A DNA stretch of 64,000 nucleotides from Kondoa subrosea (taxonomy: Eukaryota). The DNA lies in the NCBI GenBank assembly GCA_039545335.1, contig BCIN01000002.1, positions 1,970,484 through 2,034,483 of the forward strand, in the 5' to 3' direction. Each line of letters opens with the position of its first letter. The first letter of the stretch is position 1. The notes beneath the pieces are model-generated. The model was not told where the DNA came from. It ran no database searches and saw only the letters and a program-made list of their open reading frames with translations. Positions 14,141-48,400 of this stretch are shown here, piece by piece. A program made the position numbers and the translations under genes.

Positions 14141-15166
14141 ATGGGCTTGGAACATATCAAACAATTCAAGCTGAAGGAGGTGCTCAACGAAGGCGCGCTA
14201 TGCCCGACATTTGCATAACATTGGCTTACTAAGAGATACTACAACAGATGCTTCTCGTCGCCGCATCGTCTTGCTAGGCAGTCTAAATGATCAGCAAGCT
14301 ATATTGACAGTCGAAAAGACTCAATTTGATGCTTCAAGCATGAATGGTTTCGTGGATTCACTTTCTATTCTGGCGGAATTGGGCCAAAACGATGTCTATA
14401 CCTGGTTGATGGCGAACCGGAATAGCGAAATGGCGGATGAGCTTAAGATGACATTGATCTGTCCGTGTACTGAGACTGTGCGTGAAACCTCCGACGAAGC
14501 AATTTACATCGCTGGATATGAGTTTCTTATGCACAGCATATCAAGAAGCACTCTCGACAAGAGTATCGAGTCATTCGAGAGACTCCACAGCTGTATCACT
14601 CTATCGTCGTGCCTTTCATGGATGCTATACCTCCAGAGCGAATGCAATGGGTTTGGAACTTCCTGCAGAAGAAGAGCAAGTCAGAGAAAATCTTGTATGA
14701 CAACGAAGATCCTCAACATGGTTTCGTTATCGGACCTGACTTGAAGTGGAACCAAACAACCATGAATCAGCTCTACCTTCAAGCGGTCGTTTACAATCGA
14801 TCTCTCCGGACTTTACGTGACTTACGAACTTCTCATCTTCCAATGCTTCGAAATATTATCATTCAGGCTGAAACTCTGGCGAAAGGCTATGGACTTGAAG
14901 CGGGCTCAATTCGCTGCTATGTGCATTACCAGCCAGTAAGCTATGTTCAGCAATTTCATGCCTAATCTGACCAGAAGTAGAGTTACTATCACTTTCATGT
15001 TCATATCATGCATATTGAGTGCGAAACAACATCGAGAAACATCTCACTCGATGATATTATTGATAATCTGGAGAATTATGGCGACAGCTTCTACGAACGG
15101 AAGACTCTTACGTATGAGCTAGGCACTCAACATGGTCTATTTAGTGATCTCTGGGCCGCTCAGTGA
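14141..15166 (+). CDS. DCS1: Scavenger mRNA-decapping enzyme DcpS (HIT family); may continue into the CPDase by splicing
   Basis: VLNED..., NDVYTW, LICPCTETHIKKHS, RETPQLY, WVWNFL, PDLKW, LRTLRDL, CYVHYQPSYYHFHVH (HIT motif). Confidence 0.93.
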
Positions 15167-15212
15167 GCTAACAGATGATAAAACCCTTGTCGCCATACTG
15201 AGTTGCATCAAG

Positions 15213-15992
15213 GGCTGGCTCAAGCAAATCTACACCTGAAGCTCGAGAATCTCCTCCTCAAAATCAGTCATGGAATGGAATCTCATTGTGGCTTGTTCCT
15301 AGTCAGCCGAGCGAGAATGAAGCTTTGAGCAAGATCATTGCTGACTTAGCGAGACGTAATATTCATCTCTCTTCCATGAACTCAATCGCTGAGTGTAATG
15401 ACGTAGCATACAATACACCTGTCTTTGAGCCGCATTTGACCCTGTTCGGCGGTCTGGATTTCTCTACCGATCCAGCTCACATTCTGGCAGCGGTTCAAGC
15501 TGCTATCGAAATATGGCAGAAAGATCGAGCAACATCTGAACCATTACGTTTGGCTTTCGCTGAAGTAGAAGATAAAGACAACTTCTTTTTCCAATCCCTC
15601 ATCATGCATTCCGTTCCCAACGAAGATCATCTATCACTTCGGGCTGCAGTTCAAGCTCAATTCATCACTCGAGGATTGCTAAATAAGCCTCCCTCAGCTC
15701 CTTATGTTCCGCACCTATCCATGCTGTACTCGAGTAAAGTTACTGGAGAACAGAAAGGAGAGTTGTTGGCTGCATTGAGAGAGCAGAAGCAACTATCTAA
15801 GAAAGGAGAATCGCAAACTCTAGGAGGACTGCGCGATTTCGAGGTGCGTTGCCCAATTCACTAGACCAATAACTTCTCACCTTGCTGCATACATAGGCGA
15901 TGTCTCTGGTGATAGTCAGGTCGAAGTATGGGCCGGATAGTTGGGAAACGCTCGGCAGGATCTCGCTGGATACAGGCAAAGACACAATATGA
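15213..15992 (+). CDS. CPD1: 2',3'-cyclic-nucleotide 3'-phosphodiesterase (2H phosphoesterase, CPDase); no in-frame ATG of its own
   Basis: GISLWLVP first strand, two HxT/S motifs (FEPHLTL, YVPHLSM), C-terminal GPDSWETL; introns 15357-15407 and about 15844-15896; stop 15990-15992. Confidence 0.85.
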
Positions 15993-15993
15993 T

Positions 15994-18076
15994 TTAACCT
16001 AGACCAAGGAAATCTTTCTCTGCTGCTATTTCCGTTTGCAACTCTTGCAGCGACATTTTCAGACTTGCCGCATCGACTAATTGTCGCTTTGCATTTGCTT
16101 GAGCCAGATAATCCATAACTAGTCTTTCTTGCCTGTAGGGAAACGAGTCGTTAGCTAACGCGATAGACTTCACCTGGAAAACACGTACTCGATCAAAACT
16201 GTCAATTTCGCTGCTCGTTCTTCAATCTCCTGTCTTTCGGCCATTTGTTCTTCCGTCGTTCTCCCACTCGGTTCTCTTCTGAGCTTGTTTTTCTCCTTAG
16301 AAAGACTTGCTAAATCGATCTGAACCACATCTGATCCTCCGGGTTTGACAGGTACTTCATCAAATCCGCCTAAACCTTTGAGCAAACCCATCTTTTCTTG
16401 CAAATATATCGAAGCTCGACTAGCAATAGCTTTTTGTAAACGATCTTGAGCTGAATTTGGAATTTTTGTGTCTGGCGGTAAATCTCGTATACGTTTAGAT
16501 AAAGTGTCAAAAGAAGCCAGAAGTGAAAGGAGTTTCTTTCTCGATGTTAACAGAGCATTGCGCTGAGTTGAAGTAAGAGTTGCTAGACTAGAAGAAGAAT
16601 TCAGGATTTGTTCTTGGAAAGCTGGTAGAGCGGCATCGATTTGATCTTGAAGTTGGAGCAACATGTCATGCAGTCGCAACCAAAGTGGTTGTTTAGCTGG
16701 TTTATGCACAGTCTGATGATGCCTGACAAGTTGTATTAGCGTTGTAACCCGGTTTCAAACCAAGAGATAGCTCTCACATCACTACATCCAAACATTCTTT
16801 GCAAACCCTGACTCCTTCTTTCTCTCGATCTAATTGCACGTCCTCTTCTGTTGACTCCTCTAATTCTACTAGCCAACCATCGTTCTCCTCCCATTGATAA
16901 GCGACAAAAGTACTACATCGTTCACTTCGTCCTAATGGTTCAGGTGAGTTATTTGGTGGAACAAAGCACACGATTCTTCCACATAATCGACAATGATGTT
17001 TCCTAATGGTTAAAGTAAAAAGTACGGTGCATAAAGGACAACGTAAGACTGATGAATCTTCTTGCCAAGCAACTATAGATTGTTCTTGTATTCGAATCAA
17101 TTCAGCTCTTCTGGCTGTTGTTGATTGGACAGTTCTTCTCATTGAAGACCATAAATCACCAGTCGATATAGATCTAGGTGAAGAAAGGTCTTTTAAACTA
17201 AAAGTACCAGAAGAAGATCGAGACATAGTAGTAGTACTACTAGATTCCGTTGGTGTCAAAGCAGGGTTAGGAAAATGTAGTTTGACCAGTTTCTCTAATC
17301 TTCTGTTGATTCGACCACTTTCAAGCTTCTTGATTTCACCCTTGGTGGCCCTGGTTTTGAAGAGTTCGTCCGTCCGAATTCGATATACTCCTGGAGGTTG
17401 GAAACCAGGTAGATAAGGTGTTCGACCAGGTAATGTGGCCGGAGAAGGAGGAGCAAGTGATACAGATTTGCCTTTACCTGCGATCATGGAAGAGAGAGTG
17501 GAATGAGTTGTGTGAAAGTAGTCGGTCGGTAAAGCTGTCGAGCCATTTGGAGAAACAGATGGTAGGAAGGCACGATGAGAAGAAGAGGAAGAAGGTGGTG
17601 GACTTCGTGGAAAGCGATCGAGAGAAGATTGAGCTGGATTGACTGATCTTCGAGTTGGTGTTGTGGTACCACTACTGCTTGGAGAAGAAGGATGCGTAGC
17701 AAGAGGAGAAGGGGTGATAATGACTGGCGTTTTGCGAGATAGAGGACTAGGTGTTGCTGTCGTTGTTGATCCAGAAGTAGGTTGTACAGGCGCCGAGTTG
17801 GATCTCACGAATTGATCAGGTAACGAAGGTCTATGTCGATGAGTTTGAGCAGATACTATAAGAGGAGGAGGAGATGTGGCAGCTAATTCTGTCAGGGTAG
17901 AGGTGCTGCCCTGCGAGCTTGATAATAGCGAATTGATGCTCGCTGCACTGTTTCGTTTCGAAGTATACTGAACACCGCTCCGTTTGATCAGAACCATCCT
18001 TAAGGCAGCTCCAGTGCTGACTCACAGGCTTATACTTGATATGCTGCGGAACCCCGACAACCGCATCATTGCTCAT
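15994..18076 (-). CDS. PEP7: FYVE-finger vacuolar segregation protein (Pep7/Vac1/rabenosyn-like), multi-exon
   Basis: EQSIVAWQED...CPLC..F..TIRKHHCRLCGRIVC FYVE domain; C-terminal Rab-binding helix EQERLV..YLAQANAKRQL.DA. Confidence 0.85.
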
Positions 18077-34911: not shown

Positions 34912-35075
34912 CTCGGTCGTTATAGAAGACGAAAACCGTGGCAAGATGAATTCCGGGGTAGAGTAAGCATGAAGTAAAGTTATTGTTGCCGCGAAGCCTT
35001 GCGCATGCAAGAGTGTTACATTACAAGTGCAAGTAATGATATTGTTTTGTGTGTATATACAGCTCGAATCCCACC

Positions 35076-37181
35076 CTATTGCAGTTCATCGAATTTCCTC
35101 GCAGAATCAAAGACACCTTGACAACACAATAAGTAAGGGGTAAAAAGACAGCGCTGATAAAAGACTCACCCTCAACCTTACCAAGCGCTTCACGAGCCAA
35201 ATGATCAGTCGGACAATTCTTCGCCCTGAAACCACGGAACAGCCTTTCTCTGTGTTCGCCTTCCCAGACAAGATCGCAACTGTTGTCAACCAAAGAGACA
35301 GGTTCTTCTTCTATCGCGTCGATGGCATCGTCATCTCCTGCAGCAGTTCGAACAACGGTACTTTCTTCCGTCCAATCAATCCGCTGTAACATAAGACGCT
35401 TGTACTTCTTCAAGGAAAGATAGCTGCCTTCCACAACAACCAAAGCGAACTTAGGATGGAACATGCACATGCCAGTAAGGAAGAGTTGTTCAGCGTTTTT
35501 GCGGACTTTAGTCTTATGCAGAGGATTAGAGAGATGTTTGATTCTGCGAACGGCTCAGTTCAAACAATGCACATATGCATTCCAAAAGTCTGCTCACCTG
35601 AAGGCAGCAGCGTAAATTCCCTTCTTCTCCTCTTCTCTAGCTTTGTCCTCAATTTTTTGCTTACGCTGCTCATCCGTCAACGCTCGAGCTTGATTCATCT
35701 TCTCGTGACCGGTCTTTCTAACCGTCATCTCTCTGCGAACCTTTGCTTCAATCTTGGTCGGATCAGCAACGGCTTCTTGAGTTAAGACTCGCATCATGTT
35801 GGTCAACTTGACTTTGGGTGGATCAGGTGGTAATAAGCCCATGCGAACTCGGTCTTGATGATCTTTTAATTCAGCCATACGTCTTTGTCTTCTCATCTTC
35901 TTTTGCTCCTGTCGGTCGAAACACAGAAATTAGCTGCATGATCTCTAAATTGCGAGCAATCCTCGCACCTTCTTAGTCAACATTAAAGCCTTTGGAGCAA
36001 CAGCTTTCTTGTCTCCAGGCGCTGGAATAGGGATAGGATGTTGAACAAGAGAAGAACAACCTTGTTCCCAAATTGCTTGAGCTTCTTCAGCATCCAAATC
36101 TCCATACGAATCTCCTTTAACCAAAGGTGCATCCCACCATTCTACATCAGGTGGAGGAGCTCTTTTTACTCTTCTTCCTAATCCACCATCAGCTTCCATT
36201 TCATCTTCCAACCCAGCTTTCCGAGCAGCTTCCAAAATCCTTTGCTTCAAAGCTTCCATTTTCGCTTCCTGTCTCAACTGATCCGCAATCTTGACAAATT
36301 TACCTTTGGTGTTGAACTTCATTTGACGTGGTTTCTTGGTTCGAGGTGCTAGAGATTCGACACCCAAACGGCGATCGAAGTAAGGGTTCTGTCGAGCTTC
36401 TTCTAATGTAGGCCCAGAGGAAATTTGCAATGCTTCTGGTTTCTTCACTGGTTGCGAAGCTACAACGCGAGCATTGGCCTGTTAATGAGACTTAGCATAA
36501 AGCTCATGGAAGAAGAAGGGAACAAAATCACCTTTGTACTGGCAAACTTAGGCAACATAGGTTTATAGCGGTCTTTGCTGGTAGAAGGAGCTGAAGGTTT
36601 GTCCAGGTTGGCCAACAACGGATGTAGCATAGTACCAGGTTTAGCCATGCTAGCTAAAGCCGCATCGCTAGCTTTACTCTTGCTTGCTGCTGCAGCGGCA
36701 GTCTTGGAAGCAGCAGCAGCAGCTAAGTATGGATTGACGTTCTTCTGCAAGGCAGCCATATTCTCAACCTTGCGTTTCGCCTCTGCTACCCGCTTAGCAA
36801 TTTCGCTGACATCTGGCCGACCAGGTGTTTCAGCTGCCGGAGTAGACTTGGGCTCTGCAGCGTTGGGAGCGAAAGCCTTGAATTTAGCAGCGATTTCTCT
36901 GCAGATAATATGGAAATGTAAGAATGAAGCGAACATGTTCGAGCGGGAAACTCACGCTCGCTTCTTTGCGATCTGTTGGGCTACCAAATCATTTGGGCTC
37001 GGCGCCTGTGGCTTCAGATCATCCTGGACCACAATGTAAATGGAATTCCATCTAAAATACATTGTTGTCGGCTCACCTTTGGCGGAATGAAGCTAGGAGC
37101 AGCTGTGCTCGATATCTTAGGTCTCTTGGAACCAGGTGAGCCAGCCTGGGCATCATCTAGAGCTCTTTTTCGGTCAGACAT
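35076..37181 (-). CDS. PRP3: U4/U6 snRNP protein Prp3, multi-exon
   Basis: NPYFD, PPPDVEWWD, VQHPIPIPAP, LMLTKKEQKKMRRQRR, RMGLLPPDPPKVKLTNMMRVL, VVVEG..SLKKYKRLML.RIDW. Confidence 0.95.
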
Positions 37182-45411: not shown

Positions 45412-48400
45412 ATGCTGTCTAAATCGTTGAAATCACGAAGTTTCGCTACTCACCTCAATGCACCGATCATTGCTCAAAAGACAAGCACAAGACTAGTGCC
45501 TCCCTATGCAAAATTGCAGCAGAACTTGAAAACAGTCAATTCCATCCTGAAAGACGCTCCTTTGACTTTGGCTGAGAAAATCTTGTATACCCATTTGAAC
45601 AATGTGGAAGAATCATTGAGCGGCAAGAGTCATGGAGATCTTCGAGGACAGGCTTACTTAAAACTTAAACCGGATCGAGTTGCTTTACAAGACGCTTCAG
45701 CTCAAATGGCCTTATTGCAATTCTCAACTTGTGGAGCGGATAGAACTGCTGTGCCTACAAGTGTTCATTGCGATCACTTGATTTCAGCTTACGAAGGTGC
45801 CGAAGCTGATCTCAAGGTTTGTAATGTTCACGAGCTTGCGACGAAATTTCTAGTAATGCTTGGCGAGACAGAGAGCTGTCGTATCCAATAAAGAGGTCTT
45901 TGATTTCCTTGAATCCGCAAGCAGGAAATATGGTATCGAGTTCTGGAGACGTGTGTTGAGCACTGCCTGCAAGATGTACTGTAGCTTATCAATCTTTTAC
46001 AGCTGGATCTGGTATTATTCATCAGATAGTCCTCGAAAGTCAGTCGAGAAGATCCACATTTTCTCGGCTATACTAACTGTAACATGTATAGACTACTCTG
46101 CACCCGGGCTGCTCATGCTCGGATGTGATAGCCATACCCCAAATGCAGGCGGCCTGGGTGCAATTGCCATCGGTGTAGGAGGGTAAGTGTCACACATTGA
46201 ATAATATTCAATAATACGAAGAGAGAACTCATGCTAAACAGAGCTGACGCCGTGGACGCTATGACTGCCACTCCTTGGGAATTGAAAGCGCCTAAAATCA
46301 TTGGAGTCGAACTCAAAGGCGAACTTAGTGGTTGGGCGAGTCCTAAAGATTTAGTGTTGAACTTGGTCGGTCGATTGACTGTTAGGGTATGCCCAAATTG
46401 CACTTTCCGTTCGGGTTAAATAGTGATAACTAGTCAGGGCGGCACTGGAAGTATTATTGAATACTATGGTCCAGGTGCTGAAACTCTCAGCGCTACTGGA
46501 ATGTGAGCATTTCCTTTATAAATACAATTGTATAAGGCTGATTTTTTCTTAAGGGCCACAATCTGCAACGTCAGTCGCATTCAGCTTGACCTCGATTATT
46601 AGCTGAGCTTGATTCGGCATTATAGATGGGCGCTGAAGTTGGAGCTACTACTTCCCTCTTCCCTTACTCCTCCAAGATGAAAACCTACCTGCAAGCTACA
46701 GGTCGTGATGGAGTGGCAAGAGAGGCAGATCAAGCTACCTCGACTGGTTTACTCTCAGCTTCACCTAACGCTTCTTACGATCAACACATCTCCATCGATC
46801 TATCTACTATCGAACCGCATCTCAATGGTCCTTTCACTCCAGATCTATCAACACCTCTATCCAAGTTCGCCAGTCTAGTCAAAGAAAAAGGGTGGAAAGA
46901 CGAGATTTCAGCTGGTCTGATAGGCAGTTGCACGAACTCGAGTTACGAAGATATGGGAAGAGTGGTTTCGATCGCTAAACAAGCTCAAGAGAAAGGGCTC
47001 AAGATGAAAACGAGCTTCATGGCCACTCCTGGATCTGAACTCATCAACGCTACTATCTCAAGAGATGGCTATACAGTAAGATTCATTCTCTTTGTCCGCA
47101 TTTACGGCTGATGTGCGATCTCAGCAAACTCTCGAGGATGTCGGAGCTGTGGTGCTTTCCAATGCTTGTGGTCCTTGTATTGGTCAGTGGGATCGAAAGG
47201 AACTAAAAGGCGAAGAGAATGGTATGTCGTCTCTTGCAATTAGCTGTGGCCGACCTAATTCATCGCAGCCATTCTGACATCTTTCAACCGTAACTTTAAG
47301 GGTAGAAACGACGGCAATACCAAGACTATGAACTTCCTCGCCTCGCCAGATCTAGTGACTGCAATGTCGTTCTCAGGCAAACTCTCTTTCAATCCTCTAC
47401 ACGACGAATTGATAGGCGCTGATGGCAAACCTTTCCGTTTCACACCTCCTTCAGCCGATGAACTACCCTCAACAGGATTCACTCCTGGTGACCTCACTTT
47501 CCTTCCCTCTGCTTCAACTACACCGGATCCAACGGCCGAAATCGTGATATCACCAACGTCGAACCGACTGGAAAGGTTAGAAGCCTTCAAACCTCATTTC
47601 TCGCAAAGTCAGGTCGACAGCTCAGAAGTCCTGGAATTGGACGGAATGAAGTGTTTGTTCAGAGTGAGAGGCAAATGCACAACGGATGAGATTTCGGCTG
47701 CTGGACCTTGGTTGAAGTTTAAAGGTGAGTAAAAGAATCAATTTACTCGTTTGAGAAATCTGACGAGGTCTTTAGGTCATTTGAGCAACATAGCGGAAAA
47801 CACCTATATGTTAGTGCTATGTTAATGCGATCGGTGATGAGTTTTGATTAAAATTGATCTTTGACAGTGGAGCAATGAACGATCAGACAAGTAAAGTCAA
47901 TACTGCGATAGATTACCAAGATGGTCAAGAACGGACGATACCGGAAACCGCTAAGCTCTGGCGATCAAGGAATCAAGCATGGATGCTCGTGGGCGATGTG
48001 AGCTTGCTTCACTTTGTAACAAGCAGAAGCTGATTTACTCAATCCAGTTCAACTTTGGAGAAGGAAGCGCTCGTGAACATGCTGCACTGCAACCAAGGAT
48101 ATTAGGCTGTAAGGTCATCTGCGTGTAAGTCTTTGCCTCTGTCGAGTGGAATGCCTCTTAAGCTTTTTGCTTTTTTTGTTAGACGATCCTTTGCAAGGAT
48201 TCACGAAACAAATCTTAAAAAGCAAGGCATCTTGCCACTGACATTCAAAAACCCAGACGATTATAAGCTCATCAGGTACGTAGGACGCATGATAGATTGT
48301 GCACGCTTTGATGAGAATTTCTTCTAGCGGCGGCGATGATGTACAAACGCTTGGCTTGGGCGACTTACTGCGAGGTAAGATGGATGTGCAGCTCAAGCTA

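Follow-up and report, generated by a model that had tools for sequence, protein, structure and literature searches.

A predicted intron over the DcpS stop codon of Kondoa subrosea probably joins this decapping enzyme to a 2H cyclic phosphodiesterase without a start codon

DcpS, which clears m7GpppN after 3'-5' RNA decay and is represented in yeast by Dcs1 (HIT family; PDB 5bv3), is to our knowledge always a stand-alone protein. The 2H cyclic phosphodiesterases (CPDases), such as Cpd1 and the plant cyclic nucleotide phosphodiesterase that acts on ADP-ribose 1'',2''-cyclic phosphate (Appr>p; PDB 1fsi and 1jh6), also belong to a family of stand-alone proteins, in this case of about 170-236 amino acids (aa), that start with their own Met. 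A third point of reference is provided by fungal isoforms with C-terminal extensions that contain cryptic peroxisomal targeting signals, where one locus produces a short and an extended protein by splicing or by read-through; a study from 2012 reportedly described both alternative splicing and read-through in fungi. According to PMC4207609, related fungal species can use either route. Here we analyze a locus in a stretch of 64,000 nucleotides (nt) of Kondoa subrosea DNA (contig BCIN01000002.1, positions 1,970,484 to 2,034,483; hereafter, the window, in the coordinates of which all positions are given), in which a DcpS gene is followed by a gene for a CPDase. The DcpS half has the same two Pfam domains and histidine triad as the known enzymes, and the CPDase half shares with Cpd1 and its plant counterparts the PF07823 domain and the two H-x-[TS]-x motifs. 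Unlike in known DcpS/Dcs1 genes, however, the stop codon is located within a candidate intron, with a second enzyme next in frame; and unlike the stand-alone relatives, the CPDase has no start codon, either in the window or in an ortholog from a metagenome contig, denoted L001. As in the fungal peroxisomal isoforms, one locus is proposed to yield a short and an extended protein; those isoforms are extended by a short targeting signal, whereas at this locus an entire second enzyme of ~200 residues, predicted from sequence, would be added.

Based on the anatomy of the locus, we predict a spliced DcpS-CPDase fusion that is probably real. The region 14141-15992 (plus strand) would form one transcription unit with seven exons, the fourth intron of which, 15163-15212, spans the DcpS stop codon. 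Splicing of this intron would delete the TGA and shift the frame by two, yielding a protein of 512 aa that consists of DcpS (N-terminal and HIT domains), an 18-residue linker rich in S, P, Q and E, and a 2H CPDase of the Cpd1/Appr>p type. Were the intron retained, or the 3' end of the transcript formed ahead of the CPDase, translation would stop at TGA 15164-15166 and give the 288-aa DcpS alone. A shorter fusion, translated from the Met of HIMH via an internal start site, could be made with the same intron. The fusion would couple m7GpppN hydrolysis with the opening of Appr>p or 2',3'-cyclic nucleotides. We infer the splicing itself, intron retention as a source of free DcpS and the role of a coupled bifunctional scavenger, the latter because of the known activities of both families.

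The last DcpS exon ends with ...GCC GCT CAG TGA (CAG 15161-15163, TGA 15164-15166). Excision of 15163-15212 changes this end to ...DLWAAQ-AGSSKSTPEARESPPQNQSWN-GISLWLVP, in frame and without a stop, and the complete seven-exon coding sequence (CDS) of 14141-15992 comprises 1,539 nt, with an ATG start, no internal stop codons and 512 aa. The initial annotation of this DNA, made from the sequence alone, had proposed the same intron, and all its coordinates (CAG TGA, donor at 15163, ACTGAG at 15197-15202, AAG ending at 15212, 50 nt) turned out to be right on recomputation, as did its claim that the splice lands in the CPDase frame, which the 1,539-nt open CDS of 512 aa bears out. An alternative AAG acceptor at 15224, which would define a 62-nt intron, is also in frame; the acceptor at 15212 is the first AG past the branch motif. 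Within the candidate intron, an ATG at 15175 (9 nt past the DcpS stop) starts an 8-codon open reading frame (ORF) that is in the CPDase frame and ends at TGA 15199-15201.

The candidate intron resembles the other introns of this DNA. The five other introns of the DcpS/CPDase pair are 45-59 nt long, and those anchored by homology in the cullin, Prp3 and aconitase genes of the window are 47-59 nt long; the donors of the anchored introns read GTAAGC, GTGAGT, GTATGT, GTGAGC, GTTTGT, GTAAGT or GTAAGA, and their branches, of the CTRAY or CTGAG type, are located just ahead of the acceptor. By its sequence, 15163-15212 qualifies as a predicted intron of this kind, with GT...AG ends, a consensus donor, a branch 7-20 nt before the first AG and a length within the 45-59 nt range. 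An identical donor, cag/GTGAGC, is found in the Prp3 intron 35597-35544, where an ACTGAG branch lies 11 nt from the AG. A composite pattern of donor (GT[AG]AG[TC]), branch (CT[AG]A[CTG]), first AG 7-25 nt later and total length of 44-62 nt has 32 matches on both strands of the window, the candidate included, against 9.74 +/- 2.92 (maximum 17) in 50 dinucleotide shuffles. About a third of the matches are accordingly attributable to chance, at ~7.6e-5 per strand position, and rough arithmetic from the shuffle rate gives ~1e-4 for a chance match that both excises the stop codon and lands in the CPDase frame. With regard to the acceptor, the aconitase intron 46503-46553 (aat/GTGAGC ... AAG/gg, 51 nt) has to be removed to restore the contiguous ...TGMATICN..., which we take to be a conserved aconitase motif, so that AAG/GG acceptors are really used in this genome. 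Directly after this intron lies a 16-nt micro-exon (46554-46569; GGCCACAATCTGCAAC, encoding (M)ATICN), followed by another intron (GTCAGT...TAG, about 46570-46625) that ends just ahead of the ATG of MGAEVGATT.

The identity of the DcpS half can be considered confirmed, with m7GpppN hydrolase activity as a prediction. The four-exon gene (14141-15166, plus strand) has a CDS of 288 codons when the fourth intron is left unspliced, ending ...DLWAAQ TGA (288 aa); that is, with this intron retained, exon 4 reads through to CAG TGA (15161-15166). The product matches the DcpS N-terminal domain (PF05652, 7.4e-20, 72.1 bits against a cut-off of 25) and the HIT-like cap-binding domain DcpS_C (PF11969, 8.4e-16, 58.9 bits against a cut-off of 24). 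The histidine triad HFHVHIMH in exon 4 pairs with HFNIHIVN of the yeast m7GpppX diphosphatase 5bv3_A, with which the last exon aligns over residues 258-317 (E 8.1e-6).

The second frame is open from 15202, after the upstream stop TGA 15199-15201, and from GISLWLVP (15277) onward matches PF07823 (1e-11; 45.4 bits, cut-off 21). With this match, Pfam confirms both protein identities assigned in the initial annotation, all three domains (PF05652, PF11969 and PF07823) exceeding their respective cut-offs. The two H-x-[TS]-x motifs of the window CPDase are PHLTL and PHLSM, and T80, H171 and S173 are invariant in the alignment of CPDase relatives. The frame had been described as devoid of ATG after TGA 15199, and indeed none of the 26 codons in 15202-15279 is ATG; the next in-frame Met codons are found within the 51-nt CPDase intron or past the first HxTx motif. 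Retention of this intron (15356-15406) would lengthen the segment from helix 1 to the first HxTx strand by 17 residues without truncating the protein.

A structure model of L001:313-918, that is, of the ortholog and not of the window protein, has a mean predicted local distance difference test score (pLDDT) of 95.0 and a predicted template modeling score of 0.90. Its first strand is a ten-residue strand (residues 2-11), and the 10-residue blocks 1-8 average pLDDT 93-98. The best PDB matches of this model are to the Arabidopsis Appr>p cyclic phosphodiesterase, 1jh6_A (E 4.5e-9, template modeling scores 0.72/0.80) and 1fsi. At the level of the model, the 2H fold is confirmed for the ortholog, which stands in here for the window CPDase. 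A HMMER search of 1.84 billion representative proteins identified 52 CPDase relatives at E <= 1e-3, of which 3 reach E <= 1e-10, and a profile of relatives matches 1fsi_A at 3.9e-17, beginning at chain residue 9. P0001 is the gene call made on L001 and was excluded from the first-strand alignment, as were six long proteins, so that 45 of the 51 other relatives were aligned. The first strand is covered by 39 of the 45, and 37 of these 39 start with Met, 1-27 residues (median 5) ahead of the strand. Given that the Pfam domain starts at the G of GISLW, that this segment is a strand in the model, that 1fsi_A aligns there and that the relatives have their Met ahead of it, the CPDase needs an upstream start. 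A search of the Atlas protein clusters produced only stand-alone CPDase clusters of 192-219 aa. The three closest relatives (P0001-P0003) look like ORF calls that ignored introns, with truncated or odd N-termini. Among the longer relatives, P0026 (529 aa) was considered as a DcpS fusion and rejected because its N-terminus consists of prenyltransferase alpha repeats; its CPDase part lacks the first 17 profile positions, and it is possibly a merged gene model. Another relative, P0052 (305 aa), combines a cupin domain with the CPDase.

L001 is a 1,004-nt metagenome contig that was found by scanning metagenome contigs with an alignment of the closest CPDase relatives. The scan produced 170 pattern matches that fall into 3 loci, of which L001 is the sole relative; L002 and L003 are chance out-of-frame matches in a phage-like region that encodes a long repeat protein and contains a papain-like ORF. 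L001 contains, in this order, 45 poorly conserved bases at the position of DcpS intron 3, DcpS exon 4, the linker, a TAG and the CPDase. Past ...LWAAQ, its DcpS frame has no stop through 23 linker codons (FARPTAEQSTDRPIADPESPPIL) and then reaches TAG 310-312, after which the same frame continues with SWKGISLWLVP..., a 202-codon intronless CPDase (60.1 bits to PF07823, profile positions 2-199 of 199). A variant genetic code in which TAG encodes Q was considered and found no support: TAG ends 12 of the 48 long ORFs of the window, and the convergent downstream gene has a conserved TAA stop in both sequences.

No ATG is present in any frame of L001 near the first strand of the CPDase; the tandem arrangement and the start-less CPDase are common to the window and this distant relative. 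The initial annotation had allowed for a G missing from the assembly at about 15277, the restoration of which would give MGISLW. This is unlikely because L001, which also lacks the ATG, can be aligned with the window codon by codon and with no indel (TCA TGG AAT GGA ATC TCA TTG TGG in the window, TCT TGG AAG GGC ATC TCC TTG TGG in L001). Between the window and L001, DcpS exon 4 shows a proportion of synonymous differences (pS) of 0.91 and a proportion of non-synonymous differences (pN) of 0.11; the CPDases, over 202 codons without an internal gap or stop, show pS 0.75 (saturated) and pN 0.29. A CPDase ORF that remains intact despite saturated synonymous sites must have been kept by selection, and hence translated, in both lineages without a start of its own. 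The DcpS frame of L001 continues directly into the linker and on into the CPDase frame, as the fusion predicts, regardless of whether the contig is genomic or derived from RNA. L001 lacks exactly the two CPDase introns yet keeps intron-like sequence at its 5' end. It opens with GT, and the length of this first segment, 45 nt, is that of DcpS intron 3 of the window, which reflects either a start at the intron border or a coincidence; which of the two applies bears on whether L001 represents DNA, pre-mRNA or a transcript with an internal start.

Several observations weigh against the spliced fusion. AAG is the rarer type of acceptor, and in a genome as compact as this one (see below), the closeness of DcpS and CPDase by itself tells little. 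None of the six longer CPDase relatives (246-529 aa) contains a DcpS domain, the other 46 of the 52 having at most 236 aa; this absence is weak evidence given that the annotated proteins of the clade to which the window belongs are apparently absent from the searched libraries. Word-index protein searches with the CPDase ORF and DcpS exon 3 gave no scoring match either, and such blanks are likewise weak. The remaining objections come from the L001 TAG, which is in frame and only three codons ahead of the start of the Pfam domain. There is no GT-AG intron in L001 that would remove it and keep the first strand, the only in-frame donors being GC dinucleotides without the consensus. The 116 nt around and after it have a fold z of +1.39, with 192 of 200 shuffles folding at least as well, and no match to an Rfam family was found. 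Furthermore, CAG 15265-15267 of the window is the counterpart of the TAG in the alignment, and either triplet can be read as a YAG acceptor. As sequenced, L001 does not encode a simple continuous fusion; a recent nonsense variant, an error in the contig or leaky termination could account for its TAG. The fusion put forward in the initial annotation is partly supported: the intron fits those of the window and the ATG-less tandem recurs in L001, but the L001 TAG is left unexplained by a simple constitutive fusion.

An explanation that takes the TAG at face value, but that we consider unlikely, is that two products are made without the 50-nt splice, the CPDase being translated through non-AUG initiation or stop read-through from its own or a shared transcript. 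In both species, an ATG-initiated frame leads into the CPDase frame with one stop between them (ATG 15175 through TGA 15199-15201 in the window, the DcpS frame through TAG 310-312 in L001); the L001 TAG is not canonically spliceable; and isoforms that arise by read-through and non-AUG initiation are described in fungi (PMC4207609 and PMC7214817). The sequence, however, offers little for such initiation to use: the in-frame codons of 15202-15279 include no good near-cognate (CTG, GTG or ACG), and the near-cognates found in both species, ATC and TTG only, fall within the first strand and have T at -3. Read-through is favored by the contexts UGA CUA and UAG CAR YYA, which the stop contexts here, TGA G (TGA GTT) and TAG T (TAG TCT), do not resemble, and the z value given above speaks against a stable structure downstream of the L001 TAG, so that neither this TAG nor TGA 15199 of the window has the leaky context or the stimulatory structure by which programmed read-through is recognized. 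Separate translation would also turn the full intron signal over the window stop into a ~1e-4 coincidence. A variant in which free DcpS is produced in all lineages along with a minor amount of fusion, with the intron as the switch in the window and a leaky TAG in L001, seems to us quite improbable; such a locus would parallel the way in which fungi exchange alternative splicing for read-through in their cryptic peroxisomal isoforms.

The position of the L001 TAG would find an explanation if the CPDase exon were an alternative last exon that begins at 15268, after CAG 15265-15267, and is joined to the donor of DcpS intron 3 at 14936, which is the sole strong donor in frame, with exon 4 skipped, because the TAG would then be a YAG acceptor. 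The phases agree (the end of exon 3 is in phase 0, and 15268 is the first position of a codon), and L001 has GCTGAC 24 nt ahead of the TAG along with a pyrimidine-rich stretch. The product, however, would carry residues 1-227 of DcpS without the histidine triad, that is, with a broken HIT fold, in front of the CPDase. In addition, the window has no CTRAY or CTGAG branch 8-25 nt upstream of 15267, and AGs at 15241 and 15247 come earlier; the intron would be 332 nt long compared with 45-59 nt for the verified ones; nearer in-frame GC donors (15155 and 15158; 232-256 in L001) lack the donor consensus; and both the open DcpS-linker frame of L001 and the complete intron signal of the window would be left to chance, which makes this scheme very unlikely. 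It is also possible to imagine that the CPDase is silent, either as a decaying relic or because its start is masked by an assembly error near ATGGAATGGAATC (15270-15282), with the intron signal arising by chance. ATGs do occur in the two other frames at 15270 and 15275, where a 1-nt error would create a start, and the L001 TAG could signal decay in that lineage. We regard silence as quite unlikely nonetheless, given that L001 reproduces the start-less state codon for codon, with no indel and no ATG in any frame, which does not look like a local error; that the ORF has stayed open for 202 codons and retains both HxT/S motifs, at the divergence reported above; and that the L001 CPDase yields a confident 2H model. 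The spliced fusion is accordingly the reading that we prefer.

In the literature that was searched, we found no paper on a fusion of DcpS/Dcs1 with a CPDase or another 2H protein. Each half of the locus is an ordinary member of its family; the join is new, and the mechanism, removal of a stop codon by splicing, is already known from short targeting signals in fungi. If the splice is real, the resulting domain architecture is one that was found neither in that literature nor among the 52 CPDase relatives. When two enzymes are fused in nature, this is classically taken as a hint that they act in the same pathway or complex, and in this case the fusion would link DcpS to a Cpd1-type enzyme, the physiological role of which is poorly defined. 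Should the locus indeed have two outputs, scavenger decapping would be physically tied to an activity that opens cyclic phosphates (Appr>p and 2',3'-cyclic nucleoside monophosphates), suggestive of an unrecognized common step in the clearance of RNA-processing by-products. With the stop codon placed inside an intron, the locus would have a simple means of regulating whether its product contains one enzyme or two. There is also a consequence for annotation: gene callers that obey the TGA leave a start-less CPDase behind, and the ORF calls for the relatives P0001-P0003 are truncated or start at the wrong place.

The coordinates of the features are listed in Table 1. The first DcpS intron is unusual in that it is apparently of the GC-AG type. 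There is no GT within 14193-14247, and use of the GT upstream, at 14180, leads to a frameshift and a stop. Its donor, aag/GCGCGC, is one T>C step away from the GTGCG[TC] donors of the neighboring introns.

Table 1. Predicted structure of the DcpS-CPDase locus in window coordinates
Feature	Positions	Strand	Evidence and remarks
DcpS exon 1	14141..14192	+	ATG 14141; ...FKLKEVLNE; ends in phase 1; translation and check of the full CDS
DcpS intron 1, 55 nt	14193..14247	+	Apparently GC-AG: aag/GCGCGC ... TTACTAAG ... CAG; no other boundary pair preserves the frame
DcpS exon 2, N-terminal domain	14248..14477	+	PF05652, 7.4e-20
DcpS intron 2, 59 nt	14478..14536	+	GTGCGT...CAG
DcpS exon 3, first part of the HIT-fold C-terminal domain	14537..14935	+	PF11969, 8.4e-16; ends in phase 0
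DcpS intron 3, 45 nt	14936..14980	+	GTAAGC...CTGAC...TAG; matching 45 nt at the L001 5' end poorly conserved
DcpS exon 4, HFHVHIMH, C-terminus ...DLWAA(Q)	14981..15162	+	85% aa identity to L001 over 61 codons
Candidate intron over the DcpS stop, 50 nt	15163..15212	+	Predicted; tca/GTGAGC ... ACTGAG (15197-15202) ... AAG/ggc, AAG 15210-15212
Linker, (A)GSSKSTPEARESPPQNQSWN	15213..15276	+	Rich in S/P/Q/E; no ATG; ESPP and SW[N/K]G common to L001, with synonymous differences
CPDase first strand GISLWLVP and first helix	15277..15355	+	Start of PF07823; exon ends in phase 1
CPDase intron, 51 nt	15356..15406	+	GTAATA...TAG; in frame, stop-free; exactly absent from L001
CPDase main exon	15407..15843	+	Both H-x-[TS]-x motifs (HLTL, HLSM); PF07823
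CPDase intron, 53 nt	15844..15896	+	GTGCGT...TAG; exactly absent from L001
Last exon, AMSLVIVRSKYGPDSWETLGRISLDTGKDTI	15897..15992	+	Stop TGA 15990-15992

The window as a whole is a compact, intron-rich, fungal-looking chromosome segment with a GC content of 42-49%. Pfam matches of its long ORFs include PPR, actin-like, FYVE, SF1, cullin, Prp3, kinase and heme lyase proteins as well as aconitase, RCC1-BTB, aspartyl protease and PheRS-beta. Upstream of the locus, 195 nt separate the stop of a cysteine-rich ORF (~13944) from the DcpS ATG (14141). Downstream, 1 nt separates the CPDase stop (TGA 15990-15992) from that of the convergent gene on the minus strand (TAA, complement of 15994-15996), and the corresponding stop codons overlap in L001 (918-921); with the stops placed this way, the 3' untranslated regions must overlap the coding sequence of the neighbor. 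On the minus strand, at 35021-35085, the last piece of the Prp3 ORF (stop at 35021) overlaps the first piece of the cullin ORF (open from 35085), which implies that tandem genes in this genome are packed within about 100-200 nt of each other.

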